In this document: piece by piece, positions 11,014 to 58,864 of the stretch
How positions within the stretch are numbered: the stretch's first letter is position 1
Layout of the letters: each line of letters begins with the position of its first letter
The notes under the pieces: model-generated
What the model was told of the DNA's origin: nothing
Database searches by the model: none
The model's input: only the letters and a program-made list of their open reading frames with translations
Program-made: the position numbers and the translations under genes
DNA from: an uncultured Armatimonadia bacterium
GTDB taxonomy: Bacteria > Armatimonadota > Zipacnadia > CAVVLO01
Length of the DNA stretch: 64,000 bases
Assembly: GCA_963749155.1 (NCBI GenBank)
Contig: CAVVLO010000002.1
Coordinates: forward strand, 992,001-1,056,000
Reading direction: 5' to 3'

Positions 11014-11043
11014 TTGGCAACTCGTTTTGTCTCAAGTTATAAT
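11014..11043 (+). promoter_or_regulatory. sigma70-type promoter of OmpM unit 1
   Basis: TTGGCA-N18-TATAAT; the same -35 hexamer precedes all three units. Confidence 0.65.
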
Positions 11044-11067
11044 GCGGCAGTTGGGCTAGCCGAAGGA

Positions 11068-11177
11068 CGCTGGCAATCCGGTCGAGAAGGAGGTGCCCCC
11101 CGAGGCCACGCAAAAGCGTCACTCAAGTCAACCACTCAAGCTCAAAAAAGCCAAAGAGAGGCAACATGGTAACTCTC
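11068..11177 (+). ncRNA. conserved 5'-leader motif, copy 1 (candidate cis-regulatory RNA)
   Basis: blocks GGYAATC-GGYC-GGAGGTG-AGGCCACGC-AAGTC-GAGGCAAC-NNGGNNACTC shared with 15003-15105 and 18860-18969. Confidence 0.55.
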
Positions 11178-11255
11178 AAAGGCCGTCGGGCTTTGCAGGT
11201 TGATGCTGGAGTTTTCCCAACTCGCAGTAAACAACCATATGGGGGTTACACCAAA

Positions 11256-12991
11256 GTGAAAAAACTCGCAATCGCAGTAGTAGCGCTAGCGCTACTCGCG
11301 CTCGTGCTTGCCCCCGCGATGGCCAAGGATATGCCCGATGTTCCGTTCACCCACTGGGCCTATGACGCAGTGGACGAACTCACCGACATCGGCATTCTGC
11401 AGGGCTATCCGGACGGCACCTACAAAGGCCAGAGGACTCTTACCCGCTATGAGTTCGCCGAGGCCACAGTCAAGCTCGTGCATTACCTCGAGAACTACGT
11501 AGACGAAAAGACCGCCGCCCTGGAGGCTGGCGTTGACGCCGCCGAGGCGCGCGCTATCGCCAAGGACGAGGCCGCCAAAGCCGTTGCGGCCATCAAGCTG
11601 CCGACCTTCGACATGACGATGGATCAGGTTCGGGCCGCCGCTGCCGCCGCTGGCGCGCAGGCTGCCAAAGACGCCCTGGCCGGTATGAGCCCTGGCGTTA
11701 CCAAAGCCGAGGTTCAGGCCATGATCGATGGCGCAGTGCGCAACCTCGTGACCAAAGACTACGTTGACAACCTGGCCGCGGAGTTCCGCGCCGATATCCA
11801 GGAGCTTGGCGTAGATGTCGACGATCTGATGTATCGCGTCGACCAGCTCGAAGCCAAGCTTGTTGCCCTCGATGGCCGCGTATACGCCCTCGAGAACAAG
11901 CCTGACAAGGTCACTGGCAACCTCAAGTGGCGCGTCGGCACCGCCGAAGCCGTCAATGGCATGTATGTCGGCAACTGGGAGCGTTTCAGCAACCTGGAAG
12001 TGCGCGTCAACATCGACGGCAAGATCTCCGACAAGGCCCAGGGCCATATCGGTATCTGGCGTCCGGATGCCACCTATGACTGGGACAACCGCGGCACCCA
12101 CATCGACACCGCTTACGTAGATGTCCAGGACGGCCTGTTCAAGGGCGTAGACTGGCGCTTCGGCAAGCAGTACTACAAGACCGGCTGCGGCCTGACCTTC
12201 GACAACAATACCATCCCCGCAGAGGCCATCAAAGCCAACTTCACGCTGGCTGGCATCGACTTCACCGCTCTGCTGGGCTTCATCGACTCCTCGGCCCCAA
12301 GTTGGTTCAACTCGGGCGACGAGGAAGAGATCCAGGTCTACTCGGCTGCTTACGACTTTGGCCGACTTGGCCTGGTGGGCACGCTACTGCAGCGGGCCGA
12401 CTTCTATGGCGACTATGAAGCCGAGCGCTGGGGCATCGCCGCGATGTACGATGGGCTGGATATCCCGTTCTTCGGGCTCCAGGCTGATGTCGCTGGCGAG
12501 TATACGCAGCTCAAGGACTGGGTCGCGGACAACGCCTGGTACCTCGAAGCCAAGATCGCCGGGGCTGGCTATGAGCCTGGCGACCTGATGCTGAAGGCGA
12601 CCTTCTCCGACAACGAGGACATCTGGTACTGGCTGCGCAGTCGGCGTCAACTACAACGGCATGGTTATGTACAACGGCCTTGCCTGGGACTGGCTCCTGG
12701 ACGACAACAGCGTAATCGGCACCTACGGCGGCAAGACCTGGAGCGCCGCTCTCTCCAAGGACCTCGGTGGCATGGATGCGTTGCTGCGCTGGGTACGTTT
12801 CGACGATGGTCAGCCTTTGGATGATAACGGCTATTTCCGGGCCTGGTGATAGTGCCGACCTGTGGCAACTCAGCCTGACCAAGGAGATCGCCAAGGGCGT
12901 AGACGCCAAGCTGACTTATGCTCTGCTCGATGACGATTACCTGGATGACAGGTTCGACTACTTCGCTGGCTCCATCGACGTGAGCTTCTAA
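11256..12991 (+). CDS. OmpM/SlpA-like SLH-stalk-beta-barrel protein, type A copy 1 (two +1 frameshifts at ~12642 and ~12848)
   Basis: GTG start; signal peptide; SLH motif DVPFTHWAYDAV...GYPDGTYKG...TRYEFA; coiled coil; C-terminal IDVSF; otherwise nearly identical to intact 19052-20785. Confidence 0.85.
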
Positions 12992-13005
12992 CTGGCAAAA
13001 GCAAC

Positions 13006-13031
13006 TGGGGGCGGGGTTCGCCTCGCCCCCA
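13006..13031 (+). other. GC-rich UUCG hairpin between A and B genes (copies at 16951-16976 and 20800-20825)
   Basis: TGGGGGCGRGG-TTCG-CCTCGCCCCCA; copy 2 turns a G.U pair into A-U; no U-tract. Confidence 0.75.
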
Positions 13032-13052
13032 CTCCCTAAGGGGGATATACTA

Positions 13053-14879
13053 ATGAAGACACTAGCACTGGCAGTGACCATGTTGTTGATGGTTGCTTTG
13101 CTCGTGCCAGCCGTCGCCAAGGATATGCCGGACGTGCCCTTCGGTCACTGGGCCTACGACGCGGTGGACGAACTCACCGATCTGGGCGTAGTCGAAGGTT
13201 ATCCGGATGGCACTTTCAAAGGCGACCGGACCTGGACGCGCTATGAATTCGCGGTAATGCTCACGCGGATGATCGACTTCCTGGAGGACTACCTTGATTC
13301 GAAGGTAGCCGGGATGGATATGGGCATCACCGAGTCGGCGGCTCGCGCCATCGCTCGGGAAGAGGCCCAGAAAGCTGCCGCGGGCGTGCAACTGCCTGAC
13401 GTCGCGGCTTTCATGAACCAGGTTAACAGCACCGCCACCTCGGCTGGAGCAGCAGCGGCTCGCGAAGCGCTTGCGGGCTACAAGCCAGGCATCTCGAAGG
13501 CCGAGGCGCAGGCAATGATCGACGCCGCGGTCAAGAACTTCGTGGACAAGGGCGCCCTCGATGCGATGGCGCAGGAGTTCCGCGGCGAGCTTGCGATGCT
13601 GGGCGCCGACGTGGACGACCTGATGTACAGGGTCGACGCGCTGGAGACCAAGTTCGCGGCCCTCGAAGCGCGGGTAACCGCCCTCGAGAACAAGCCCGAC
13701 AAAGTCACTGGCGTAATCGAGTGGAAAGCTGGCACCAACGAGTTCCCCGAGACTGGCGAGATCAATCCCAATGAGAACCTTGTTGGACTCGGTGCGCCTG
13801 CCCGCGACTATCTACCCGCTGGCCCAGGCTGGAACCGCTTCAGCAATCTCTCGGTCAAGGTAAACATCGACGGTAAAATCAGCGACAAGGCTCAGGGCCA
13901 TATCACTCTGTGGCGTCCCGATGCCACCTACGATTATATGGGCCGGGGCACCCACATCGACACTGCTTACGTGGATGTCCAGGATGGCCTTTTCAAGGGC
14001 GTAGACTGGCGTCTTGGCAAGCAGTATTTCAAGACAGGCTGTGGCCTGGTATTCGACAATGACCTGTTCCCTTCAGAAGCTGCCAAGCTGAGCTTTAATC
14101 TTGGCGGACTAGATCTGACTGGCTTCTTCGGCTGGACCGACTTCAGTCCAATGGAGGAAGCGTCCGAAGAACCGACCTATGTTGGCGAGGCCAAGTATAG
14201 CTTCGGACGACTCGACCTGGACGGTACCTATATGTTCAGGGGCGAAGGCGGCGCCAGGCGCTGGGGCATCGCGGCTGGGTACGAAGGGCTGGACGTGCCC
14301 TTCTTTGGGCTCAAAGCCAATGTCAAGGGCGAATGGGCTTCGATCGTAGATGCAATAGGGGGCGGAGTGCTGCCTCCTGGTATCTCGGACGAGGCTTATT
14401 ATGCCCGCGCAGATATCATGGGCAAGGGTTGGGAACCAGGCGACTGGATGTTTACAACCACCTGGGCCGAGCAGCAGCTTGGTTATCTGGCCCTCCTCAA
14501 CAGCACCCATCCATATAGCCTGGGCGTTCTCTACAATGGCTTGCCCTGGGACTATATGCTCAGCGACAACGTGACAATGGGCCAGCCTGGCATGTTCGCT
14601 TATAGCGCTGGGCTGTCTGGAGAACTGGCTAATATGCCTGTCAGTCTCCGTTGGGCGCGTTGGTCACCAACTGGAGCTTTGCTGGCTGCACTCGGCGCTC
14701 CAGCCGGCGTAGACTTCGACATCGACGTCTACCAGGTGACCCTCGACAAGGAACTGGCAGAAGGAGTTATGGCTCGCCTTACCTGGGCCAACTTCAAGCC
14801 AAGCATCGACTCTCCAGTTCCTATACCCTACGACCTGGAAGCGCAGTACGTTGGTGGTTCCATCAACGTGCTGTTCTAA
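13053..14879 (+). CDS. OmpM/SlpA-like SLH-stalk-beta-barrel protein, type B copy 1
   Basis: signal peptide; DVPFGHWAYDAV...GYPDGTFKG...TRYEFA; coiled coil; C-terminal INVLF. Confidence 0.88.
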   Translation: MKTLALAVTMLLMVALLVPAVAKDMPDVPFGHWAYDAVDELTDLGVVEGYPDGTFKGDRTWTRYEFAVMLTRMIDFLEDYLDSKVAGMDMGITESAARAIAREEAQKAAAGVQLPDVAAFMNQVNSTATSAGAAAAREALAGYKPGISKAEAQAMIDAAVKNFVDKGALDAMAQEFRGELAMLGADVDDLMYRVDALETKFAALEARVTALENKPDKVTGVIEWKAGTNEFPETGEINPNENLVGLGAPARDYLPAGPGWNRFSNLSVKVNIDGKISDKAQGHITLWRPDATYDYMGRGTHIDTAYVDVQDGLFKGVDWRLGKQYFKTGCGLVFDNDLFPSEAAKLSFNLGGLDLTGFFGWTDFSPMEEASEEPTYVGEAKYSFGRLDLDGTYMFRGEGGARRWGIAAGYEGLDVPFFGLKANVKGEWASIVDAIGGGVLPPGISDEAYYARADIMGKGWEPGDWMFTTTWAEQQLGYLALLNSTHPYSLGVLYNGLPWDYMLSDNVTMGQPGMFAYSAGLSGELANMPVSLRWARWSPTGALLAALGAPAGVDFDIDVYQVTLDKELAEGVMARLTWANFKPSIDSPVPIPYDLEAQYVGGSINVLF

Positions 14880-14901
14880 GCAACATTCAAACCCGCAACA
14901 G

Positions 14902-14935
14902 AGAGTCCGGGGCTTCGGCTTCGGACTCTTTTTTT
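14902..14935 (+). terminator. intrinsic terminator of unit 1
   Basis: AGAGTCCGGGGC-TTCG-GCTTCGGACTCT followed by a T-run. Confidence 0.85.
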
Positions 14936-14945
14936 GTGATATGGG

Positions 14946-14974
14946 TTGGCAGAAAAGCAATCTCGTATTACAAT
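14946..14974 (+). promoter_or_regulatory. sigma70-type promoter of OmpM unit 2
   Basis: TTGGCA-N17-TACAAT. Confidence 0.65.
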
Positions 14975-15002
14975 ATTTTACAGAAGTTTTACAGAGAGCT
15001 GC

Positions 15003-15105
15003 GGTAATCGGGCCACCAGGGAGGTGAGCTTCGAGGCCACGCCAAGTTCTCAAATAAGTCACTTCGTGGGCAGTCCGAGAGTAGGACGAGGCAACACGGT
15101 GACTC
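15003..15105 (+). ncRNA. conserved 5'-leader motif, copy 2 (most divergent)
   Basis: GGTAATC-GGGCC-GGAGGTG-AGGCCACGC-AAGTC-GAGGCAACACGGTGACTC. Confidence 0.55.
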
Positions 15106-15175
15106 CTCTACCCTCGTGACTTCCCTATAACGATTAAGTTCGTCAGGTAATATCCCAAATTAGGGGGGGTCATAA

Positions 15176-16936
15176 GTGAAACCACTTGCAGCTACGGTAG
15201 TAGCGCTAGCGCTACTCGCGCTCGTGCTTGCCCCCGCGATGGCCAAGGATATGCCCGATGTTCCGTTCACCCACTGGGCCTATGACGCAGTGGACGAACT
15301 CACCGACATCGGCATTCTGCAGGGCTATCCGGACGGCACCTACAAAGGCCAGAGGACTCTTACCCGCTATGAGTTCGCCGAGGCCACAGTCAAGCTCGTG
15401 CATTACCTCGAGAACTACGTAGACGAAAAGACCGCCGCCCTGGAGGCTGGCGTTGACGCCGCCGAGGCGCGCGCTATCGCCAAGGACGAGGCCGCCAAAG
15501 CAGTCGCGGCCATCAAGCTGCCGACCTTCGACATGACGATGGATCAGGTTCGGGCCGCCGCTGCCGCCGCTGGCGCGCAGGCTGCCAAAGACGCCCTGGC
15601 CGGTATGAGCCCTGGCGTTACCAAAGCCGAGGTTCAGGCCATGATTGATGGCGCAGTGCGCAACCTCGTGACCAAAGACTACGTTGACAACCTGGCCGCG
15701 GAGTTCCGCGCCGATATCCAGGAGCTTGGCGTTGACGTAGACGATCTGATGTACCGCGTTGACCAGCTCGAAGCCAAACTTGTTGCCCTCGATGGCCGCG
15801 TATACGCCCTCGAGAACAAGCCTGACAAGGTCACTGGCAACCTCAAGTGGCGCGTCGGCACCGCCGAGGCTGCTAATGAGTATTACGATGCCATGTATGG
15901 GTGGATCAACTATCCAGGTAACTGGGAGCGCTTCAGCAACCTGGAAGTGCGCGTCAACATCGATGGCAAGATCTCGGACAAGGCCCAGGGCCATATCGGT
16001 ATCTGGCGTCCAGATGCCACCTATGACTGGGACAACCGTGGCACCCATATCGACACCGCTTACGTGGATGTCCAGGACGGCCTGTTCAAGGGCGTAGACT
16101 GGCGCTTCGGCAAGCAGTATCTGAAGACCGGCTGCGGCCTGACCTTCGACAACAATACCATCCCCGCCGAAGCCATCAAGGCCAACTTCACACTGGCTGG
16201 TATCGACTTCACCGCTCTGCTGGGCTTCATCGATGCCTCCGACCCGAGCTACTTTATGAGTGGCGACGAGGAAGAGATCCAGGTCTACTCGGCTGCTTAC
16301 AGCTTCGGCCGGCTTGGCCTGGTGGGTACGCTGCTCGAGCGCGCTGATTTCTATGGCGACTACGAAGCCGAGCGCTGGGGCATCGCCGCGATGTACGATG
16401 GGCTGGATATCCCGTTCTTCGGACTCCAGGCTGACGTCGCTGGCGAGTATACCCAGCTTGAGGACTGGGTTGCAGACAACGCCTGGTACCTCGAAGCCAA
16501 GATCGCCAAGAAGGGTTACGAGCCTGGCGACCTGATGCTGAAGGCGACCTTCTCCGACAACGAGGACATCTGGTACTGGCTTCGTTCGGCTGTCAACTAC
16601 AATGGCATGGTGCTGTATAACGGCCTTGCCTGGGACTGGATCCTGGACGACAACAGCCTGGTAGGCACCTTCGGCGGCAAGACCTGGAGCGCCGCTCTCT
16701 CCAAGGACCTCGGTGGCGTAGACGCACTGCTGCGCTGGGTGCGTTACACTGACAGCCAACCGCTCGATGACAATGGCAACTTCTGGACCTACGATGACGC
16801 CGACCTGTGGCAACTCAGCCTGACCAAGGAGATCGCCAAAGGTGTAGACGCCAAGCTGACCTATGCCCAACTCAATGACAAAGCCTTCGATGAGAAGTTC
16901 GACTACTTCGCTGGCTCGATCGACGTGAGTTTCTAA
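15176..16936 (+). CDS. OmpM/SlpA-like protein, type A copy 2
   Basis: same SLH/stalk as other A copies; differs in discrete loop-like segments; C-terminal IDVSF. Confidence 0.88.
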   Translation: MKPLAATVVALALLALVLAPAMAKDMPDVPFTHWAYDAVDELTDIGILQGYPDGTYKGQRTLTRYEFAEATVKLVHYLENYVDEKTAALEAGVDAAEARAIAKDEAAKAVAAIKLPTFDMTMDQVRAAAAAAGAQAAKDALAGMSPGVTKAEVQAMIDGAVRNLVTKDYVDNLAAEFRADIQELGVDVDDLMYRVDQLEAKLVALDGRVYALENKPDKVTGNLKWRVGTAEAANEYYDAMYGWINYPGNWERFSNLEVRVNIDGKISDKAQGHIGIWRPDATYDWDNRGTHIDTAYVDVQDGLFKGVDWRFGKQYLKTGCGLTFDNNTIPAEAIKANFTLAGIDFTALLGFIDASDPSYFMSGDEEEIQVYSAAYSFGRLGLVGTLLERADFYGDYEAERWGIAAMYDGLDIPFFGLQADVAGEYTQLEDWVADNAWYLEAKIAKKGYEPGDLMLKATFSDNEDIWYWLRSAVNYNGMVLYNGLAWDWILDDNSLVGTFGGKTWSAALSKDLGGVDALLRWVRYTDSQPLDDNGNFWTYDDADLWQLSLTKEIAKGVDAKLTYAQLNDKAFDEKFDYFAGSIDVSF

Positions 16937-16999
16937 CTGGCAAAAGCAACTGGGGGCGAGGTTCGCCTCGCCCCCACTCCCTATAAGGGGGATATACTA

Positions 17000-18734
17000 A
17001 TGAAGACACTAGCCTTGGCAGTGACCCTTCTGTTGATGGTCGCTTTGCTCGTGCCAGCCGTCGCCAAGGATATGCCGGACGTGCCCTTCGGTCACTGGGC
17101 CTACGACGCGGTGGACGAACTCACCGATCTGGGCGTAGTCGAAGGTTATCCGGATGGCACTTTCAAAGGCGACCGGACCTGGACGCGCTATGAATTCGCG
17201 GTAATGCTCACGCGGATGATCGACTTCCTGGAGGACTACCTCGATTCGAAGGTAGCCGGGATGGATATGGGCATCACCGAGTCGGCGGCTCGCGCCATCG
17301 CTCGGGAAGAGGCCCAGAAAGCTGCCGCGGGCGTGCAACTGCCTGACGTCGCGGCTTTCATGAACCAGGTTAACAGCACAGCCACCTCGGCAGGTGCAGC
17401 AGCGGCTCGCGAAGCGCTTGCGGGCTACAAGCCGGGCATCTCGAAGGCCGAGGCGCAGGCAATGATCGACGCCGCGGTCAAGAACTTCGTGGACAAGGGC
17501 GCCCTCGATGCGATGGCGCAGGAGTTCCGCGGCGAGCTTGCGATGCTGGGCGCCGACGTGGACGACCTGATGTACAGGGTCGATGCGCTGGAGACCAAGT
17601 TCGCGGCCCTGGAAGCGCGGGTAACCGCCCTCGAGAACAAGCCCGACAAAGTCACTGGCGTAATCGAGTGGAAAGCTGGCTCTGTCGAGCCACTTGGCTT
17701 TGGGATGTATGGGCCATATGCTCGTAGCTGGGAACGTTTCAGCAACCTCTCGGTTAAGATCAACATCGATGGCAAGATCTCCGACAAGGCCCAGGGCCAT
17801 ATCGGTATCTGGCGTCCGGATGCCACCTATGACTGGGACAACCGCGGCACCCATATCGATACCGCTTACGTAGATGTCCAGGACGGCCTGTTCAAGGGCG
17901 TAGACTGGCGTTTTGGCAAGCAGTATTTCAAGACAGGCTATGGCCTGGTTTTTGATAATGACATACAGCCTTCCGAAGCTGTCAAACTCAACTTCCAACT
18001 GGGCGCACTTGATCTGACCGGTTTCTTCGGTTGGACCGATTGCCCCTATGGCTTTGGCGATGAAGATCCAACTTATGTTGGTGAAGCCAAATACAACATC
18101 GGCAGGCTTACACTGGATGGCACGTATGTCTTCCGGTCTGAAGTTGGCGCCAAGCGTTGGGGCATTGCAGCTGGGTACAAGGGGCTCGATGTGCCGTTCT
18201 TCGGCGCTAAAGCTGACCTCAAAGGCGAGTTCGGCGAGGTAATCAACGGCAACGGCGGAGGAGGAGTACCGTCCTCCATCGACAACGCCTATTTTGCGCG
18301 CGCTGACTTTATGGGCAACGGTTATGAGCCAGGCGACTTCAAACTCGGAGTAAGCTGGTCCGAGCAGCAGCGGGCATACCGTCCGTGGCTATGGAGCGGT
18401 TCGACTTATGACCATTATGTCCATTATGGCAGCTCGGCGATCGGCTCAGCCTGGGACTTCCTGCCTAGGCGAGAATTTCCAGGTTGGCGGACTGCTCTCG
18501 GGTACCCGCTGGACTGGCGAGATCGAGAAGGATCTTGGCAACCTAGGCCTGTTCCTTCGTTACGCGCAAATGAAAACTTGGGGTGCTCCTGAATATAGCA
18601 AGCTTTATCAGCTTGCTCTGGACAAGGAACTAGCCGATGGGGTCAACGCCAAGCTGACCTACGCGCGGATTGACTATGGTATGTTGGACACCGAGACCGA
18701 CTACTTCGGCGGCTCCATCAACGTAGACTTCTAA
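17000..18734 (+). CDS. OmpM/SlpA-like protein, type B copy 2 (+1 frameshift at ~18464)
   Basis: ORF 17000 joined to the 18408-18734 frame gives ...WDFLLGENFQ...INVDF. Confidence 0.85.
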
Positions 18735-18759
18735 CCGGTTAGTTCAAGCGACACAAAAG

Positions 18760-18790
18760 AGCCCGGGGCTTCGGCCCCGGGCTTCTGTTT
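18760..18790 (+). terminator. intrinsic terminator of unit 2
   Basis: GCCCGGGGC-TTCG-GCCCCGGGC then TTCTGTTT. Confidence 0.8.
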
Positions 18791-18805
18791 GGGAGGATAC
18801 TACTG

Positions 18806-18834
18806 TTGGCAGAACGTGATTTTCCAGATACAAT
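18806..18834 (+). promoter_or_regulatory. sigma70-type promoter of OmpM unit 3
   Basis: TTGGCA-N17-TACAAT. Confidence 0.65.
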
Positions 18835-18859
18835 AACAACAGGTTGGAAAGCAGAGGGG

Positions 18860-18969
18860 CGCTGGTAATCTGGCCAAAAAGGAGGTGTCCCCCAAGGCCA
18901 CGCCGAGGCGTCACTCAAGTCAGCTCAAAGAGAATCTGAAGGAGAACTCGAGAGGCAACTAGGATACTC
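18860..18969 (+). ncRNA. conserved 5'-leader motif, copy 3
   Basis: GGTAATC-TGGCC-GGAGGTG-AGGCCACGC-AAGTC-GAGGCAACTAGGATACTC. Confidence 0.55.
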
Positions 18970-19051
18970 CCGATCTTCCTCCTTCTTTTCTCCTTGTGAT
19001 GATGCTTGGGTATGCCAACCCGAATGTATACACCAACAAGGGGAAATCAAA

Positions 19052-20785
19052 GTGAAAAAACTCGCAATCGCAGTAGTAGCGCTAGCGCTGCTCGCGCTCG
19101 TACTTGCCCCCGCGATGGCCAAGGATATGCCCGATGTTCCGTTCACCCACTGGGCCTATGACGCAGTGGACGAACTCACCGACATCGGCATTCTGCAGGG
19201 CTATCCGGACGGCACCTACAAAGGCCAGAGGACTCTTACCCGCTATGAGTTCGCCGAGGCCACAGTCAAGCTCGTGCATTACCTCGAGAACTACGTAGAC
19301 GAAAAGACCGCCGCCCTGGAGGCTGGCGTTGACGCCGCCGAGGCGCGCGCTATCGCCAAGGACGAGGCCGCCAAAGCCGTCGCAGCCATCAAGCTGCCGA
19401 CCTTCGACATGACGATGGATCAGGTTCGGGCCGCCGCTGCCGCCGCTGGCGCGCAGGCTGCCAAAGACGCCCTGGCCGGCATGAGCCCTGGCGTTACCAA
19501 AGCCGAGGTTCAGGCCATGATCGATGGCGCAGTGCGCAACCTCGTGACCAAAGACTACGTTGACAACCTGGCCGCGGAGTTCCGCGCCGATATCCAGGAG
19601 CTTGGCGTAGATGTCGACGATCTGATGTATCGCGTCGACCAGCTCGAAGCCAAGCTTGTTGCCCTCGATGGCCGCGTATACGCCCTCGAGAACAAGCCTG
19701 ACAAGGTCACTGGCAACCTCAAGTGGCGCGTCGGCACCGCCGAAGCCGTCAATGGCATGTATGTCGGCAACTGGGAGCGTTTCAGCAACCTGGAAGTGCG
19801 CGTCAACATCGACGGCAAGATCTCCGACAAGGCCCAGGGCCATATCGGTATCTGGCGTCCGGATGCCACCTATGACTGGGACAACCGCGGCACCCACATC
19901 GACACCGCTTACGTAGATGTCCAGGACGGCCTGTTCAAGGGCGTAGACTGGCGCTTCGGCAAGCAGTACTACAAGACCGGCTGCGGCCTGACCTTCGACA
20001 ACAATACCATCCCCGCAGAGGCCATCAAAGCCAACTTCACGCTGGCTGGTATCGACTTCACCGCTCTGCTGGGCTTCATCGACTCCTCGGCCCCAAGTTG
20101 GTTCAACTCGGGCGACGAGGAAGAGATCCAGGTCTACTCGGCTGCTTACGACTTTGGCCGACTTGGCCTGGTGGGCACGCTACTGCAGCGGGCCGACTTC
20201 TATGGCGACTATGAAGCCGAGCGCTGGGGCATCGCCGCGATGTACGATGGGCTGGATATCCCGTTCTTCGGGCTCCAGGCTGATGTCGCTGGCGAGTATA
20301 CGCAGCTCAAGGACTGGGTCGCGGACAACGCCTGGTACCTCGAAGCCAAGATCGCCGGGGCTGGCTATGAGCCTGGCGACCTGATGCTGAAGGCGACCTT
20401 CTCCGACAACGAGGACATCTGGTACTGGCTGCGCAGTGGCGTCAACTACAACGGCATGGTTATGTACAACGGCCTTGCCTGGGACTGGCTCCTGGACGAC
20501 AACAGCGTAATCGGCACCTACGGCGGCAAGACCTGGAGCGCCGCTCTCTCCAAGGACCTCGGTGGCATGGATGCGTTGCTGCGCTGGGTACGTTTCGACG
20601 ATGGTCAGCCTTTGGATGATAACGGCTATTTCCGGGCCTGGTATAGTGCCGACCTGTGGCAACTCAGCCTGACCAAGGAGATCGCCAAGGGCGTAGACGC
20701 CAAGCTGACTTATGCTCTGCTCGATGACGATTACCTGGATGACAGGTTCGACTACTTCGCTGGCTCCATCGACGTGAGCTTCTAA
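19052..20785 (+). CDS. OmpM/SlpA-like protein, type A copy 3 (intact)
   Basis: 577 aa: signal peptide, SLH, stalk, barrel-like region, terminal Phe. Confidence 0.9.
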   Translation: MKKLAIAVVALALLALVLAPAMAKDMPDVPFTHWAYDAVDELTDIGILQGYPDGTYKGQRTLTRYEFAEATVKLVHYLENYVDEKTAALEAGVDAAEARAIAKDEAAKAVAAIKLPTFDMTMDQVRAAAAAAGAQAAKDALAGMSPGVTKAEVQAMIDGAVRNLVTKDYVDNLAAEFRADIQELGVDVDDLMYRVDQLEAKLVALDGRVYALENKPDKVTGNLKWRVGTAEAVNGMYVGNWERFSNLEVRVNIDGKISDKAQGHIGIWRPDATYDWDNRGTHIDTAYVDVQDGLFKGVDWRFGKQYYKTGCGLTFDNNTIPAEAIKANFTLAGIDFTALLGFIDSSAPSWFNSGDEEEIQVYSAAYDFGRLGLVGTLLQRADFYGDYEAERWGIAAMYDGLDIPFFGLQADVAGEYTQLKDWVADNAWYLEAKIAGAGYEPGDLMLKATFSDNEDIWYWLRSGVNYNGMVMYNGLAWDWLLDDNSVIGTYGGKTWSAALSKDLGGMDALLRWVRFDDGQPLDDNGYFRAWYSADLWQLSLTKEIAKGVDAKLTYALLDDDYLDDRFDYFAGSIDVSF

Positions 20786-20846
20786 CTGGCAAAAGCAACT
20801 GGGGGCGGGGTTCGCCTCGCCCCCACTCCCTAAGGGGGATATACTA

Positions 20847-22578
20847 ATGAAGACACTAGCACTGGCAGTGACCATGTTGTTGATGGTTGCTTTGCTCGTG
20901 CCAGCCGTCGCCAAGGATATGCCAGACGTGCCCTTCGGTCACTGGGCCTACGACGCGGTGGACGAACTCACCGATCTGGGCGTAGTCGAAGGTTATCCGG
21001 ATGGCACTTTCAAAGGCGACCGGACCTGGACGCGCTATGAATTCGCGGTAATGCTCACGCGGATGATCGACTTCCTGGAGGACTACCTCGATTCGAAGGT
21101 AGCCGGGATGGATATGGGCATCACCGAGTCGGCGGCTCGCGCCATCGCTCGGGAAGAGGCCCAGAAAGCTGCCGCGGGCGTGCAACTGCCTGACGTCGCG
21201 GCTTTCATGAACCAGGTTAACAGCACCGCCACCTCGGCTGGAGCAGCAGCGGCTCGCGAAGCGCTTGCGGGCTACAAGCCAGGCATCTCGAAGGCCGAGG
21301 CGCAGGCAATGATCGACGCCGCGGTCAAGAACTTCGTGGACAAGGGCGCCCTCGATGCGATGGCGCAGGAGTTCCGCGGCGAGCTTGCGATGCTGGGCGC
21401 CGACGTGGACGACCTGATGTACAGGGTCGACGCGCTGGAGACCAAGTTCGCGGCCCTCGAAGCGCGGGTAACCGCCCTCGAGAACAAGCCCGACAAAGTC
21501 ACTGGCGTAATCGAGTGGAAAGCTGGTACCGCCAATGATGGCAGCAGCTGGAATCGCTTCAGCAACCTTGACTTGAAGGTAAACATCGATGGCAAAATAA
21601 GTGACAAGGCCCAGGGCCATGTCACCCTGTGGCGTCCGGATGCCACCTACGACTGGGACGAGCGCGGCACTCACATCGACACCGCTTACGTAGACGTCCA
21701 GGATGGCCTGTTCAAGGGCTTCGACTGGCGTTTGGGCAAGCAGTATTACAAGACCGGCTGCGGTCTGACCTTCGATAACGATGTCATGCCCGCCGAAGCT
21801 GTCAAGCTCAACTTCGACCTGCTTGGCGCCGATGCGACCGTGTTCTGGGGTACCAGCGATTACGCCGATAGCTGGTTTGGCTATGACGATGAGATGGTCA
21901 CCCTGCTTTACAACCTCAAGAAGCAGTTCGGCCATCTGACCCTGGATGGCACTTTCGTCGATCGCAACCTGTGGGAAGATGAGCAGCGTTGGGGCATCGC
22001 CGCAATGTATGAGGGGCTGGACGTGCCGTTCTTCGGCCTGAAGGCTGACCTCGAGGGCGAGTATACCCAATATGACAAGCCCTGGACTTCCTACAACTCC
22101 TACTACACTGGAGCCACGTTGAAGGGCAAGAACTATGAGCCGGGCGACTTGAAGCTCAAGCTGACCTTCGCAGACAATCCCTACTATGACGAGTACTGGC
22201 CTTACCAGAACGGCTTCATCACCTATGATGGATTTGTCTGGTACAGCAACCTGGCCTGGGACTTCCTTCTTGTCGGATGCCCCGAACCTGGGCGTGCCCT
22301 ACGGGAAGACCTGGAGCGCTACTCTGACCAAGGATCTGGGCTGCGTGGACGCGCTGCTGCGCTGGCGCAAATATGTACCCGACAATGCGGCCGGGTACAT
22401 CTACCTGGATTCCTGGGGCTACTCTTACCTTTACAACCAGGGCGACCTGTGGCAGCTCAGCCTCACCAAGGAGCTTGCAGAGGGCGTAGACGCCAAGCTG
22501 ACTTATGCTCAGCTCAATGACAACTATTACGATGAGACCTACAAGTACTTTGGTGGCAGCATCAACGTAGGCTTCTAA
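20847..22578 (+). CDS. OmpM/SlpA-like protein, type B copy 3 with A-like barrel (+1 frameshift at ~22270)
   Basis: ORF 20847 joined to the 22186-22578 frame gives ...WDFLLSDAP...INVGF. Confidence 0.85.
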
Positions 22579-22601
22579 TCAACCAACTGAACCAAACGAC
22601 C

Positions 22602-22632
22602 AAACCCGGGGCTACGGCCCCGGGTTTTTTTT
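22602..22632 (+). terminator. intrinsic terminator of unit 3, possibly bidirectional
   Basis: AAACCCGGGGC-TACG-GCCCCGGGTTT with T8 run; lies between convergent genes. Confidence 0.88.
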
Positions 22633-22649
22633 GCGTTAAGAAGAAGAGT

Positions 22650-23228
22650 TCAGTCTAAGTGAGTCAGCCCGTGGAAATATGTTGTCAGAGTATGTTTCAA
22701 CTCTTCATCATAATCACGTGGGGTATCGGCATCTACTAGCGCCTGGGTATATATGCCACTGATGATGCCAAGCACAGCCAGAGTATCCAGATAAGGCCGC
22801 CTGGAAGCAGTCAGATGCTGCTTCATAAGTGCGACCAAGGAAGCCAGAAGCTCTACCACAACAGGGGGCACAGGTTCGGCGACTGGCGCAAGCTCGCGGA
22901 AGAGCAAGGTAAAGAAAGTGGGACGTTTGCCTATCTGCCGACCCAGTTCCAGGGCGAAAGCCAGCCCGCCATCATCACTGGAAGCTTCCTCAGAAAAGGC
23001 CTCCAGCTCCGCCTGAACCTTGCCAAACTTGCGCCTCAGGCACAGTTCGTAAAGCTGTTCCTTGTTGCCAACATAGTAGTAGAGCATCGCCTTGTTGACG
23101 CCAGCGGTTTCGGCGATCTCCTCCAGGGTGGCCGCGTGGAAGCCTTCGCGAGCGAATACCTGTAGCGCCGCCTTGATTACGGTGTCAACGCGGGCTTCTC
23201 TCTGTTCAATTCGACACTGCTTCATCAA
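22650..23228 (-). CDS. TetR/AcrR family transcriptional regulator
   Basis: AALQVFAREGFHAATLEEIAETAGVNKAMLYYY HTH. Confidence 0.93.
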   Translation of the reverse strand: MMKQCRIEQREARVDTVIKAALQVFAREGFHAATLEEIAETAGVNKAMLYYYVGNKEQLYELCLRRKFGKVQAELEAFSEEASSDDGGLAFALELGRQIGKRPTFFTLLFRELAPVAEPVPPVVVELLASLVALMKQHLTASRRPYLDTLAVLGIISGIYTQALVDADTPRDYDEELKHTLTTYFHGLTHLD

Positions 23229-25190: not shown

Positions 25191-27278
25191 TCAATCGCCA
25201 AGCAGGTCGCGCCGTAAAGCCTTAACTCGGCCAGCAAAATAGGCTGGGGCGTCGGCTTCCAAAGGGAAACAGAACAGCCAGGGGCCGGGAGTTGAATAAC
25301 TCTGCCCTGGTTCGAGGAGTGCATTGGGAGGATGGCGCAGTTCAAGCAAAACCGGCTGCCCTGCACCGCCAGAGGACCAGTATTCAAAGTCGCGCGGGTC
25401 GAGGAAACTGACCCCGAGGCCGACGCCCGCCTGGCGGTCAAAAGCCCATATACCAGGGCGGTAGAAGGGGATCCACATATGGCGGAAGGGACCAGGCTCA
25501 TCGCCTGCTGAATCTCCCCCCACTTTGCTTTCAAGCCGCCACTGGGTTTCTGCCAGGCGCCAGGGGCGAGAGGAAACCGAAGTCACCTCTAGGCAGTCTT
25601 ACAGCACACCAGCCTTCCGGGCCGGTCGGAACCACGACCTCGGCGCGCGCGGAGAAAGCAAGGTCACCCTCGGCGATAAGCTCGAGTTCCAGTCGGGTAA
25701 TCCGGTCAGTGTGGGTAGCCGTCAGGATTTTGGTAGAAGAAGCGGTCGTCCAGCGATATCCCCCCGCGTGCTGGAGCAGTCGCAGCTCTAGTGCGCCAAG
25801 CGAGCTATTGCCGAGGGCAAAACCTGGCCTGCCCAGCTCATCCAGTCTGGTAGTAAGGAGGCCAGTCGTCAATTGCTCTGGCAGGGGACAGGCAACTCCG
25901 ACCTCGGTCATCCAGTCTGGCAGTTTTTTGGGGCTTGCGGTCGCCGGTGGAGTAGCCGCCAGATGGAGCCGGTCTACTTCCTGATTTGCCTTGGCAAGGG
26001 CCTCTGTTAAGTCAGGATACGGTTCGTCACGCTCATTCACCAGGCCGTAGTTGGTGTTTTCAGGATGGTGAGCCGCAAGCCCCAGGGCGGGCTCGTCTAC
26101 CCACATAAAGTAGCTGCTGCCAACAACATAAGGCAGACTTGCCAGCGCCTTGAGATAAGTAGCAGAAGCCGCAGCCCGCTGGGCCTGGGTCTCCACGCGC
26201 AGGCCGGCGCCTGTTGTGCAGGGCAGGCCGCTGTCCAGCGCGGGGAAGCTCCACTCGCTAATCAACAGAGGTTTACCTGAGAGCCTGTGCCACTGTTCCA
26301 GTTGGGTAATCTGCCAGTCAGGTAGCTCACCTTCAGGCTCAAAACGGGGATAGAGATTTACACTTATCACATCACAATATTTGCCGGCGATCTCCCAGAC
26401 AGGCTCTGGGGCATCTCCAGCAAAACGCACCCCGAGCAGCAGGTGATTTGGGTCATACCGCTTAACTGCCGCGGTGACCACACTGAAATAGCGCTCCGCA
26501 ACCAGGCGCAGCCAGTCATCGCACAAAGCAACCGCCGCATCAGTCATCGGCGGAGAGGGCTGGGCGCTTTGGGCAATCTGCTCCCAGGAGAAGCCAGGCG
26601 CTCCAAAATCTGCACAAAAGGCTTCACTAGAGGGGTAGCGCGATTTTAGAAAATCCAGCCAGGCCTGTTTGGCAGGGTCGTCAACCGGTTTGCGCCAGGC
26701 CTCTTCAAACAACCCCCAGGGCCGTCCAATGCGTCCCCACCAGGCCAGTTCGTTGTCCAGATAATAACCAATCAGGCCAGGCTCACTCGCGCGCTGGGCG
26801 CAGTAGGCAGCGGCTCGCTCCACGCAGCTGGCTTCCCAGTCGGGATGAAAGACATTAGGGAAAGCCGCGTAGACAGTAGGTGAGACAGTTGGGAGGCCCT
26901 CTTTGGAGGCGAACCAGTAACCAAGAGGGAGCAGCTCAATACTCGGCAGGCCAGCCTCGCCTTTGAGTTCGGCATTAGAGAGTTCGCCGACCGCATCGAA
27001 GCCCCAGGCCGCCAGACGTTCTCTGGTCACCCTGGCCCAGGCTTCTGGGGACCGCCATACTTCGCCTCGACCCATCGTTCATAGGGTGAATAACCTAGCC
27101 GTTCGCAGAAATGACCTGAATAGCGAACCTGACTCACGGCCGAGAGGAAGCTTGCTTCTCCCGAGGGAGCTACCAACCACCAGATGCCAGCGCGCTGCTC
27201 CAGGCCATAAAAGCCTGGGGCTGCCCAGGCTAGCGACGACAGAAGCGTAATTAGCAATATCAGGCCAGTTCGTATCAC
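25191..27278 (-). CDS. secreted GH50/beta-agarase-like glycoside hydrolase (+1 frameshifts at ~27048 and ~25592)
   Basis: signal peptide; GIWWLVAPSG; RLAAWGF; IGYYLDNEL; DPNHLLLGVRF; GKPLLISEWSF; ENTNYGLV; three ORF pieces join by single-base removal. Confidence 0.7.
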
Positions 27279-38305: not shown

Positions 38306-39623
38306 ATGCCAAGGATAAGAGACCTGCTTAAGTGGTTGTATCCCGGGCTAGGAGTGAAGCGCTGGCTGCTAGCGCTCCTTGTCGGCACAGCCCTGGTTGC
38401 TTTTGGCCTGGCGCTGCTCGCCAAGGATGAGTTGCTGTTTGGTAACAACCGCCTGGTCGAGTGGGTGTATTTCAACACGGGTATATTGATTGCGCACAGT
38501 TGGTTTGGCGCGGTAATTATGCTGCTCGGATTACTCCTGCTTGGCTTTGCGCTTTCCCGATTGCTGCATACAATCGTTGATGTACTAAGACCTGCGGAAC
38601 ACGGGCAACTCGCGGACTTGCTGGTGCGCAAACGGTTCCTCGCCCATGGAGAAGAAATTGTTGCCCTGGGTGGCGGGACGGGCCTTTCTACCTTGCTACG
38701 CGGCATCAAGGAATACACCCGCAACATCAGCGCTGTGGTTACCGTGGCGGACGATGGCGGCAGCACGGGCCGGCTGAGGCGCGACTTCGGCATCCTGGCC
38801 CCTGGAGATTTGCGAAGCTGCCTGGCCGCGCTGGCAGATGCCGAGCCGCAGATGATGTCGCTACTGCAATACAGGTTTGATGAGCAAAGCAAGGAGCTGG
38901 AAGGCCATTCGCTCGGCAATCTGCTAATCACCGCGCTTACCAAGGTACAAGGCAATTTCTCTGACGGCTATCCAGGAACTAAGCAAAGTTCTGGCCATCC
39001 GCGGCCGGGTCTTGCCGGCGACCCTGGCCAATGTCGCGCTGGTGGGAGAACTGCTTAACGGCGAGCGCGTGGAGGGTGAAAGCAACATCCCCAAATCGCA
39101 TTTCCCCATCAGGAGGGTGTGGCTGGAACCCGAGAGTCCCCCTGCGGCGCCCGAGGTAATTGAAGCCTTGCAGAACGCCGCGGTCATCGTGGTCGGCCCA
39201 GGCAGCCTGTTCACCAGTCTGCTACCCAACCTGCTGGTGGCGGGAGTCACTGATGCCATCCGGGCCTCTGAGGCAGTGCGGGTCTATGTGTGCAATGTGA
39301 TGACCCAGCCGGGGGAGACTGACGGCTTCACCGCCGCGGACCATATAAAGCTGATTTACGCCCATACAGGGCCAGGCCTGTTCGATTATGTGCTGCTCAA
39401 TAGCCAGGAGCCTCCTACCGAAGTGCTCTCGCGCTACGACAACGTGGCCGCGGAGCTGGTATACAACGACCTCGATGAGCTAAGAGAGCTTGAATTGGAG
39501 CCAATTGAGCGCCCTCTATTGCAGGTGAGCGAGGTAATCCGCCACGATCCGGCGGCTCTGGCCGAGGCCTTGTTTACCCTGGTAGACAGGGGCCGGCCAC
39601 GTCCCCGAAAAAGGCGAAGCTAA
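38306..39623 (+). CDS. yvcK: gluconeogenesis factor YvcK with N-terminal membrane extension (+1 frameshift at ~38960)
   Basis: GGGTGLS, VTVADDGGSTGRLR, GHSLGNL; then GPGSLFTS, NVMTQPGET, RHDP in the shifted frame. Confidence 0.9.
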
Positions 39624-47569: not shown

Positions 47570-48409
47570 CTAGAAAGTCATACCAACGGTAATCATATGG
47601 AAGGGATCATCAAGATCAATCAGGCCATAATCGACTGTTGCCCTGCCAAAAGACAGGCCAGCGCCAACGCTCCAGACATCGGCTGGGTCGTTGTACCCGC
47701 CGCGAAGCAGCACCGGTACGCCCAGGAACTCGCCGAAGTCATACTCGCCACCGACTGCAAATCCGCGATCGACTTCATCGGCGACATCGAACAAGTCGGC
47801 CTCGAGCAGCAAGCCTGGCATCCAGTTGACCGCAACGCCCACATCGATGGTGGCAGCCAGCTTCTCACCAATCAGCGTATTGCTTGGGACGTTGCGCAAG
47901 ACAGCGGCGACTTTGCCCTCTTTGCCCAGGAAACCGAAGTCGTTCATTATGACGCCAAAATCGAGGGAAGTAGCCTCGGCATCATCAGCGCCATTATCAG
48001 CGGTGATCCATTTGGCAGAGATCCCGGCAACCAGGTCATCGTCCAGTTGATCCGCATAACCAATGACGAAGGTCTTGTAGTCAGTGCCAGGGTCATCGGC
48101 ATTGATGAAGTGATAACCGAGGGTGATTGCAGGATCGGTGTTGTTCTCTAGCGGCGCCCAGCAGAAGCCAAAAGCGCTCATATCTCCACCATCGGCGTCG
48201 AGACTGAAGCTCGCTCCGGCTTCTTTCTTTGGAAGCTCGAACACTCCGGCTGGGTTAACCAGTTGGGCATCGAAGCCTGTTGCGGTCGCGAGGACGGCGC
48301 CAGCCATTGCGGCTTCGCGCGCGCTGGGCACGGCAATCGGATTAGCCAAAGCCATAAGACTTACTGCAAGTAGTGCTGCGACTAGAGTGTAAATACTAAG
48401 ACGTTTCAT
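47570..48409 (-). CDS. PorV/PorQ-like (FadL-type) outer-membrane beta-barrel
   Basis: signal peptide; SAREAAMAGA.LA......A..VNPAG plug motif; GISAKWI, SLDFG, LRN, LRGGY, C-terminal HMITVGMTF. Confidence 0.7.
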   Translation of the reverse strand: MKRLSIYTLVAALLAVSLMALANPIAVPSAREAAMAGAVLATATGFDAQLVNPAGVFELPKKEAGASFSLDADGGDMSAFGFCWAPLENNTDPAITLGYHFINADDPGTDYKTFVIGYADQLDDDLVAGISAKWITADNGADDAEATSLDFGVIMNDFGFLGKEGKVAAVLRNVPSNTLIGEKLAATIDVGVAVNWMPGLLLEADLFDVADEVDRGFAVGGEYDFGEFLGVPVLLRGGYNDPADVWSVGAGLSFGRATVDYGLIDLDDPFHMITVGMTF

Positions 48410-48468
48410 TGTTCCACCTCGTTGGAGGAGTATAGGGTCGTGGGAGTATACCACAGGAAAGGAGGCAC

Positions 48469-50451: not shown

Positions 50452-50494
50452 CTCCCGAAGGTGGTGGCCCTAATAATCTCAGACTTGGCTCTTC

Positions 50495-51154
50495 TTACTC
50501 CTCGGGAGTAGCGGTGGCAACTGGTTCCGCCAGCACAATAACCTGTGAGAGCAACTTGGTAGCCGCATTGCGCACTGCGGCTCTCGCTGCTGCCTCCTCG
50601 GTGAGGGCTGCCTCCAGGCCACTATCAGCAATTGCGATCCCAGTAAAGGCCAAAGTGATATCTGACAAAGGCACTTGAGTGTAAGGATCGGTATTGGAGG
50701 CGACTTCTACCAGAGTTAGCCCAAGGCCAGCAGCCCCTTTACAGGTGCCACTTTCCTCGGTCAAGGCCGAGCAGCTTATTACACGTGGGACCAATACATA
50801 ATCAGCCCCGACAGCTATACCAAGCTTCACCGCGCGGCGTGGCTCAGTGATACGATCCCAGTCAGACTGCGTGACATTACCCGTAACTAGCGCCCGCTGG
50901 AAAATCGGCGACCTGGTATGGAGGAAGAAAGGCTTGAACTGCACAGCCTCTCCGTTGAACATTACAGGCTGAGAAAGCTGCCTTTGAAGCAGGTTGCCAT
51001 ATTCGCCGCTGCTAATTGCCAGCGAACCATTTTCCGCCTGCAAGGCGACCACTGCAAGTGACACCGTGCGTATTGGCGCTGCCTCATCCTGGGCCAACCC
51101 AAGACCGCAGGTAAGTATCACCATTATAAGCAAGCATCCGATAAGCCGAAGCAT
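50495..51154 (-). CDS. secreted protein with possible CsgG/TolB-N-like alpha/beta fold
   Basis: signal peptide; SLAVVAL; AVKLGIAVGADYVL. Confidence 0.45.
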   Translation of the reverse strand: MLRLIGCLLIMVILTCGLGLAQDEAAPIRTVSLAVVALQAENGSLAISSGEYGNLLQRQLSQPVMFNGEAVQFKPFFLHTRSPIFQRALVTGNVTQSDWDRITEPRRAVKLGIAVGADYVLVPRVISCSALTEESGTCKGAAGLGLTLVEVASNTDPYTQVPLSDITLAFTGIAIADSGLEAALTEEAAARAAVRNAATKLLSQVIVLAEPVATATPEE

Positions 51155-51178
51155 CCGATGATCCTCCTCCGCAAGCGG

Positions 51179-53761: not shown

Positions 53762-53824
53762 CGGATGTTCCCCCTTGGCATCTCCAACTGGCGCATAACC
53801 GCAGGTCAAAGCGACCAATAGCCG

Positions 53825-56786: not shown

Positions 56787-56903
56787 CTGAACCCCCTAGT
56801 CCCAACTACTCCGGACAGGTGTGCGCCGGACAGGTTCGATACTAGCTAACAGCACTCCGGGGAGAAGGCCGGAAGACCCTCTCCCCGGCATTAGTCAAGT
56901 CGT

Positions 56904-58751: not shown

Positions 58752-58864
58752 TCGTTGTCCCTCCTGACACGTTGGGCTCGTGCTTGGCTGTTATTCAGGT
58801 TGTTTCCGCAATCGTTCAGCCGGACGGCCCAGTACTAGCCCGAGCCGTCCGGGTTCATCCCATT

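Follow-up and report, generated by a model that had tools for sequence, protein, structure and literature searches.

A tandem array of paired OmpM-like tether genes with near-constant stalks and divergent predicted barrels in a likely Armatimonadota genome

Why diderm Terrabacteria keep many copies of ompM, the gene for a protein that tethers the outer membrane to the cell wall, is a question already posed in print, where the expansion is reported for Negativicutes only. A 2021 preprint (bioRxiv 10.1101/2021.05.31.446380) describes OmpM in Armatimonadetes and up to twenty copies in Negativicutes; among the other diderm Terrabacteria it reports no expansion of that kind, and it states that the reason is not known; its supplements may list the copy numbers of this phylum. 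The question is raised again by the window analysed here, 64,000 nucleotides of contig CAVVLO010000002.1 (assembly GCA_963749155.1). Its + strand carries, at 11256-22578, six genes in one orientation, 576-608 codons long and arranged as A1, B1, A2, B2, A3, B3, each coding for a domain of S-layer homology (SLH), a stalk and a barrel, and flanked by a metallophosphoesterase gene and tetR. We favour, with moderate confidence, the reading that these genes are an OmpM tether-porin family laid out as A+B pairs, that two stalk types are likely held constant by gene conversion while the predicted 18-stranded barrels diverge and are exchanged, and that the units are probably expressed side by side.

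Six tether-like genes in three A+B units

A preliminary description of this DNA, made from the letters alone, had divided the array into three units of promoter, leader, A gene, UUCG hairpin, B gene and terminator, and we found all three at equivalent places (Table 1). The best three among 7 promoter-like matches were the sites of the form TTGGCA-17/18-TAYAAT at 11014, 14946 and 18806. The total of 7 is not above chance (shuffles gave a mean of 4.0, sd 2.0), and the case for promoters is made because the three top sites occupy equivalent positions, not by the scan total. In each unit a leader of ~200 nt separates the promoter-like site from gene A, the spacer from A to B holds an 11-bp UUCG hairpin (3/3 units), and a further hairpin follows B, with a U-tract that is strong for B1 and B3 and weak for B2. 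Each unit is likely a single transcript, and more A than B would be made from it, given the hairpin without a U-tract 3' of A and the small one that covers the B ribosome-binding site.

Each of the six genes has a signal-peptide-like start (judged by eye), one SLH domain, a predicted helical stalk and a C-terminal Phe, and PF00395 scored above its cut-off in A2, A3 and B1, the three intact genes. The best solved relatives by sequence were OmpM1 (E 4.5e-15) and SlpA (E 8.8e-15, with SLH and stalk covered). AlphaFold models of A3 and B1 both showed 18-stranded barrels ending in the terminal Phe, with pLDDT (predicted local distance difference test) values mostly of 70-95 in the strands; the A3 model has helices over residues 64-213 at pLDDT <50, and a heptad-like segment before the barrel is visible in the sequence. 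Foldseek gave Veillonella OmpM1 (VpOmpM1) as its first match. A wider structure comparison ranked 18-stranded channels such as AlgE over OmpM1 (VIA: AlgE Z 23.8, 320 aligned, root-mean-square deviation (rmsd) 3.7; OmpM1 Z 18.4, 284 aligned, rmsd 4.5). Of the OmpM/SlpA class to which the proteins had been assigned, the OmpM side stands, on the Pfam SLH match and on the top rank of VpOmpM1 by sequence and in Foldseek; the SlpA side does not extend to barrel size (18 strands vs 28-30). By analogy with VpOmpM1, the proteins would trimerise, hold the wall through SLH and form diffusion pores.

The array does not hold all the genes of this family. In the genome assembly (4.17 Mb in 7 contigs, estimated at 100% complete with 5.87% contamination), the PF00395 SLH domain occurs at 10 places, giving ten SLH-barrel genes in four A+B units and two singles. 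The fourth unit, A4 and B4, has its own leader and lies on the minus strand of contig C3 (G000:C3:61900-65567; L043:5901-9568). The A4 barrel equals that of A3 in protein over residues 241-453 and differs in loops 1, 7, 8 and 9, and in B4 loop 2 is lengthened by an 11-aa insertion and the stalk carries one extra base. Single gene C (G000:C2:762850-764535, L044) is directly 5' of an rRNA operon and has an A-like stalk and the most divergent barrel. Single gene D, also with an A-like stalk and with the leader motif described below, lies at G000:C2:1377103-1391300 (L045, L233), 4-10 kb from tamB, an extracytoplasmic function (ECF) sigma factor gene, bamA and lpxD.

Homogenised stalks and old barrels

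The near-constant SLH domain and stalk ascribed to each type from the outset were borne out: the protein is 100% identical among A1-A3 and among B1-B3, and 60% identical between the types. Synonymous divergence (dS) of the stalk was 0.022-0.076 among A genes and 0.007-0.060 among B genes, with 0 amino-acid-changing differences, and barrel dS among B genes was 1.10-1.74. Old barrels thus sit on fresh stalks, and ongoing homogenisation is therefore needed. As judged from these sequences, gene conversion likely maintains the constant stalks and is the simplest reading of the stalk and barrel pattern. Constant stalks would give paralogous subunits the same periplasmic spacing, allowing them to co-assemble.

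The stalk and barrel trees disagree. B3 has a B stalk, its barrel groups with those of the A-stalk proteins P0007 and P0008 (100/100), and monophyly of the B barrels was rejected by the approximately unbiased test (p-AU 1.6e-5); on these trees B3 is a chimera of a B stalk and an A-lineage barrel. Identical runs also cross the types, 83 nt between A3 and B2 and 94 nt between A4 and B2, in barrels that are 55% identical overall, and the public relative P0013 has a B4-like loop 1 joined to a B1 barrel.

Six variable barrels had been described on these stalks. The array and its constant stalks stand, and the number of distinct barrels falls to five, A1 and A3 being 99.4% identical over the whole gene (6 substitutions and 2 single-base insertions in A1, by self-BLAST). 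Identity had also been said to break abruptly after the motif WRVG/WKAG. The inserts that follow it are exactly 12, 32, 21, 16, 12 and 7 aa long, as had been given, but the break does not persist: identity recovers to 73-100% across the six genes over barrel residues 241-345 and then falls.

Several points weigh against a reading built on conversion and exchange. The tract statistics assume uniform divergence, and the region is conserved in all paralogues, so that naive probabilities overstate the case. The group for the monophyly test was picked after a first tree had been viewed, and P0013 and other public relatives come from short contigs and could be assembly chimeras. Stalk pLDDT is <50 in both the A3 and B1 models, and loop assignment depends on predicted models. 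As to the assembly itself, the 8 A/B genes hold 5 single-base insertions in 13.9 kb, more than expected from the genome background of 4 in 69 kb (Poisson p 0.0015), and outside data speak against the B2 break alone. The junctions of unit 1 with unit 2 (four runs) and of unit 2 with unit 3 are spanned by no outside contig, and absent cover proves nothing.

Loop variation and alternative explanations

To locate the variation, sites were classed on the A3 model as outer (loops and outer strand halves, 215 sites) or inner (inner halves and turns, 144 sites). A1-A4 differ at 40/215 outer vs 4/144 inner sites (p 2e-6), public A-like proteins at 105/215 vs 35/144, and B1-B4 at 149/215 and 68/144. The clustering of differences in loop-like segments, claimed at first for the whole array, is therefore a feature of the A type, while B barrels differ throughout; the A class alone acts as a loop-varying family, public A-like proteins included. 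The structure predictions for A3 and B1 did place the variable segments on predicted extracellular loops above a constant anchor, as had been expected. Periplasmic turns are constant in length in 8/8 A/B genes. Across the same genes loop 1 ranges over 1-26 residues, loop 8 over 6-24 and loop 9 over 4-13; the length of loop 3 does not vary, and loop 7, of 38-44 residues, shows 44% identity. Loops 3 and 7 make the pore constriction of VpOmpM1 (PMC10628300). Should the same hold here, differences among the B barrels would extend from the surface to the properties of the pore. A would be the bulk tether and the B genes would supply lesser pores with different channel and surface properties.

Outward variation of this kind might instead mark a surface-switching locus, in which expression alternates between units, or loops pass by conversion from silent copies, so that the cell escapes phages or predators. 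The outward bias of A-type differences, shared by the public A-like proteins, speaks for such a locus, as do the mosaic genes and the three leaders, which differ and could allow separate regulation. We nevertheless consider it unlikely. In the loops the proportion of nonsynonymous differences (pN) is below that of synonymous differences (pS) in 7/7 pairs (A2/A3: 0.15 vs 0.44); these are class-level counts, beside which selection on a few loop codons may still act. Nor was there an outer-side excess in 4/4 pairs of a paralogue with its public orthologue, where outer (/215) vs inner (/144) counts were 11 vs 7 for B1/P0013, 33 vs 23 for B3/P0008, 8 vs 6 for C/P0015 and 17 vs 17 for D/P0012. Loop-biased change is in any case expected in any porin under relaxed constraint. 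A1 and A3 share one barrel; self-BLAST found all repeats direct, with no inverted copies; the two tyrosine recombinases (PF00589) in the genome are both distant (serine recombinases were not searched); and with a promoter-like site before every unit there is no single expression site. Simple repeats that could serve phase variation amount to runs of just 6-7 bases, none within the promoter spacers. Alternative display and phage evasion, put forward earlier as the driver of the array, are thus not upheld, and the units are probably co-expressed rather than switched. RNA-library contigs held B2 pieces in run X6, a B1 piece in run X10 and no close tetR/ABC pieces; such contigs cannot rank expression and were used neither for nor against switching.

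Two further explanations turn on the frameshifts, which in the assembly interrupt A1 (two breaks) and B2, B3 and B4 (one extra base each). Were they real, A1, B2, B3 and B4 would be pseudogenes in an array decaying after repeated duplication. The A/B genes do have about six times as many insertions per unit length as the background sample, and the insertions lie outside long homopolymers. With class-relative proteins as queries, however, frame switches were found in 4/63 genes of that sample (4 in 69 kb, 0.058 per kb). Frameshifts elsewhere in this assembly interrupt msbA at two places and lpxD and yvcK at one each. The broken A/B genes read through without in-frame stops, and their stalks are without amino-acid change. 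Over 18363-18514, which spans the estimated B2 break, a contig from run X6 matches for 151 letters with 0 mismatches and one gap within the interval, so that it is one base shorter across the break; for B3, none of the four runs had a contig covering the break. The frameshifts are probably assembly errors, and poor polishing of repeats would explain their excess in the A/B genes; we regard decay as very unlikely. It is more improbable still that the array is itself an artefact of strain alleles stitched into one contig, with A1 especially a ghost copy of A3. The contamination estimate, the inter-unit junctions that no contig bridges and the 96.9% identity between the 2.7-kb stretch from leader 1 into B1 and that from leader 3 into B3 could be cited for it, and the identity of A1 with A3 could stem from assembly. 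Each unit, on the other hand, has its own leader and flanks, and the C-terminal parts of the B barrels share 39-58% identity, a divergence far beyond alleles. Exact pieces of B1 and a near-exact one of B3 are present in run X2, as are an A-to-B junction and the B3-tetR junction, and tandem ompM arrays are common in Negativicutes.

If the array is genuine, the pairing of its genes might mean that A and B are obligate partners, the two stalk types being complementary halves of a tether whose subunits must co-assemble into heterotrimers. A is paired with B in 4/4 units, the two stalks align without a gap over 209 residues at 60% identity, and the strand 1-5 region is the best conserved part of the barrel and bears the cross-type conversion tracts. 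The placement of P0009 and P0010 suggests that the A/B stalk split is older than the species. Class relatives have two-gene ompM pairs as well, and in 2/3 of these (L038, L039) the leader motif precedes the first gene only. Against obligate pairing, singles C and D have A-like stalks without a B partner. An ancient A/B orthology across the class was rejected: in a quick tree the ompM pairs of other families group by family, and such pairs therefore arose more than once, as independent duplications and not as A/B orthologues. SlpA is described as a homotrimer (PMC9388160), and the word 'heterotrimer' is absent from the VpOmpM1 paper (PMC10628300). Obligate heterotrimers are on balance decidedly unlikely, and mixed A/B trimers, which equal-length stalks and a common strand 1-5 region would permit, are plausible. 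A wider scheme combines these elements into a combinatorial tether: in-register stalks kept by conversion, mixed A/B trimers, exchangeable 18-stranded barrels, barrels and single loops shuffled between operons, and operon output set by a phylum-spanning RNA hairpin read by a protein. We hold this to be quite unlikely. It would imply a heteromeric OmpM, of which our literature search found no description, and would tie an orphan RNA, the SLH motif, to control of an ancestral envelope tether. The reading that we retain is that of paired tether-porins with converted stalks and drifting, exchanged barrels.

Leader hairpin, genomic setting and known systems

The four A leaders have a common 5' element with an orphan Shine-Dalgarno-like (A/G)GGAGGT, which in the three window units stands 150-165 nt ahead of the start codon; ACCTCCT occurs at the 3' end of this genome's 16S. 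In class relatives a 5' leader element with an orphan GGAGG is recognisable upstream (L009, L010, L013, L016), with a consensus fold of 7 pairs, 2 of them with compensatory changes. The A leaders also form a long hairpin tipped by AG-GNNAC-N(2-3)-GGNNA-CT, and gene C has a variant loop with closing GG/CC instead of AG/CT. On the sense strand the strict motif lies upstream of 51/114 full-length SLH-barrel genes, and on the antisense strand of 0, among loci that are related and partly redundant. In 60 aligned hairpins, the examples having been selected so that the two closing pairs are fixed, the pair beneath them reads G-C 32 times and C-G 14 times, with covariation above 500/500 shuffles and all slid controls. 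Negativicutes have the motif too: 61 genomes gave 191 matches vs 67 for a reversed control pattern, and in four genomes 14/20 matches precede ompM. Rfam 15 had no match in the leaders, and a genome search with RF01701 (Cyano-1), at E up to 10, gave 0 matches. Our RNA model R2 recovered below E 0.05 only its five training leaders, a circular result not used as evidence.

Translational autoregulation has reportedly been described for Thermus slpA in the 1990s literature; our literature search did not find it. Stav et al. (2019) described an SLH motif, a riboswitch candidate that lies 5' of SLH genes of Synergistaceae, Clostridia and Negativicutes, an interval of Thermovirga lienii being among those they list (PMC6429828). 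The leader hairpin is probably this motif: both are structured RNAs 5' of SLH-domain genes in Negativicutes, and the match was made by position and host range. The hairpin also occurs in named Armatimonadota and Atribacterota loci. On an ompM leader our literature search found nothing among the papers listed. Two GGNNAC units in the loop suggest a protein-binding site rather than an aptamer. The hairpin loop of cyanobacterial Yfr2-5 likewise has a GGAAACA repeat, but Yfr2-5, the family of RF01701, are free-standing small RNAs (PMC1242208). Together with the orphan Shine-Dalgarno-like sequence, the leader hairpin may set the stability or translation of very abundant ompM mRNAs.

The host is likely a member of the Armatimonadota, in which the longest matches among named genomes fall. 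Genes neighbouring named Armatimonadota loci matched at a median of 45%, while the values were 32-37% in three other groups and 48% with two Thermotogae genes, a crude comparison of different genes. BamA, LpxC and a full lpx/kds/lpt cluster mark the diderm envelope in which OmpM is expected. The cluster lies 11-30 kb upstream of the array (L232, G000:C2:972100-992099) in the order lpxC-fabZ-lpxA-lpxB-msbA-waaA-lpxK-lpxL-kdsB-kdsA-kdsD-kdsC-lptC-lptA-lptB-lptG. A lone CsaB-like polysaccharide pyruvyltransferase gene is found at G000:C2:1076247-1077089, 20 kb beyond the window end; a pyruvylated wall polymer is a candidate SLH ligand, at which this gene hints. Among named genomes and metagenomes, scans turned up no near relative that carries a full array (28-65% over parts at best), and a barrel-only search with B1 gave 13 matches and no new B alleles. 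Two-gene ompM pairs of diverged paralogues were seen in relatives and metagenome loci (L037, L038, L039, L160, L172).

Other genes were noted near the ompM loci and elsewhere in the window. The C3 unit sits between glycoside-hydrolase-like genes, and an exosortase-like gene follows at the gene D locus. Within the window, overlapping ORFs on the minus strand at 25191-27075, without a Pfam match, look like one frameshift-split glycoside-hydrolase-like gene; at 38306-39623 a yvcK/cofD-like gene 3' of rapZ is split by one frameshift, probably an assembly error. A run of large proteins on the minus strand at 47570-63944 includes three with a C-terminal FlgD-type Ig domain, one of them an M6 peptidase and one with carboxypeptidase-regulatory repeats, and also a CsgG-like protein and a Big_1 protein; it resembles a secreted or surface cluster with a common C-terminal tag.

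Table 1. Features of the three A+B units, in window coordinates.
Feature	Position	Strand	Remarks
Unit 1 promoter-like site, TTGGCA-18-TATAAT	11014..11043	+	11/12 consensus matches
Leader 1 orphan Shine-Dalgarno-like AGGAGGT	11088..11094	+	161 nt 5' of start codon; in 5' element common to four A leaders
Leader-1 hairpin tip, loop and closing pairs AG-GNNAC-NN-GGNNA-CT	11159..11174	+	ompM-leader RNA motif, probably SLH motif
ompM A1, A-type stalk, A3-like barrel	11256..12991	+	Extra bases vs A3 near 12642 and 12848, probably assembly errors
Unit 1 A-B spacer, 11-bp G+C-rich UUCG hairpin without U-tract	13005..13030	+	Then 5-bp hairpin over B ribosome-binding site; units 2 and 3 alike
ompM B1, 608 aa, intact, B-type stalk	13053..14879	+	Predicted 18-stranded barrel; 32-aa insert in loop 1
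Unit 1 intrinsic terminator	14900..14935	+	
Unit 2 promoter-like site, TTGGCA-17-TACAAT	14946..14974	+	
Leader-2 hairpin loop motif	15089..15104	+	Orphan Shine-Dalgarno-like GGGAGGT at 15019
ompM A2, 586 aa, intact	15176..16936	+	Differs from A3 mostly in predicted loops 1, 4, 7, 8, 9
Unit 2 A-B UUCG hairpin	16951..16976	+	
ompM B2	17000..18734	+	Extra base near 18455-18470; 83-nt tract identical with A3, strand 2-4 region
Unit 2 terminator-like hairpin	18760..18790	+	U-tract weak on + strand
Unit 3 promoter-like site, TTGGCA-17-TACAAT	18806..18834	+	
Leader-3 hairpin loop motif	18953..18968	+	Orphan Shine-Dalgarno-like AGGAGGT at 18880
ompM A3, 577 aa, intact	19052..20785	+	Signal peptide (by eye), SLH 31-68, predicted helical stalk to ~213, predicted 18-stranded barrel 218-576, terminal Phe
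Unit 3 A-B UUCG hairpin	20799..20824	+	
ompM B3, B-type stalk, barrel of A-stalk lineage (chimera, from trees)	20847..22578	+	Extra base near 22263-22278
Unit 3 intrinsic terminator, facing opposite-strand tetR	22602..22633	+	Junction bridged by run X2 contig, 22473-22796, 0 mismatches, 1 gap

Among known systems, the array is most readily compared with Veillonella parvula, whose OmpM1-4 are encoded by three tandem genes and one elsewhere (PDB 8BYS/8BYM; PMC10628300, PMC5491611, bioRxiv 10.1101/2021.05.31.446380). As in that species, the proteins here have a signal-peptide-like start, one SLH domain, a stalk (predicted to be helical) and a C-terminal barrel, and tandem copies near envelope genes are accompanied by copies elsewhere; unlike VpOmpM, with 16 strands, the barrel is predicted to have 18. 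All three tandem OmpMs of Veillonella are reported as abundant, and the authors of that work suggested that different surfaces, serving adhesion or immune evasion, arise from the copies (PMC5491611). The Deinococcus radiodurans protein SlpA (PDB 7ZGX) has the plan of SLH domain, long coiled stalk and barrel that is also predicted here, but has 28-30 strands and one or two copies (PMC9388160), compared with 18 predicted strands and ten copies here.

In Mitsuokella (L230), six ompM genes are 90-100% identical over the first 80 residues and mostly 30-80% in barrel blocks. Each of those six copies has its own leader motif, whereas the genes described here form A/B stalk classes in apparent bicistronic units; SLH domain and stalk together measure ~196 aa here and ~85 in the Mitsuokella proteins. 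A constant N-terminal anchor with a variable exposed part is also the plan of the sap S-layer array of Campylobacter fetus, where one promoter is moved by inversion; the genes of the present array share one orientation, and there is a promoter-like site for each unit.

The constant stalk with a variable barrel is thus already known, from the Mitsuokella array, and the idea of surface diversity is in print for Veillonella (PMC5491611). None of the findings yet shows a new mechanism. Our literature search, with subscription journals outside its scope, found neither ompM gene conversion nor barrel exchange in print. A leader hairpin common to Negativicutes suggests that the SLH motif is a general ompM leader. 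To the question of why many copies are kept, the window adds ten copies in another phylum and sequence evidence on their upkeep, by conversion of the anchor and exchange of barrels. What is new against the known systems is the likely Armatimonadota host, the two paired stalk classes in each operon, the combination of a long stalk with a barrel of 18 predicted strands, and the signs, in the sequences, of conversion and barrel exchange.

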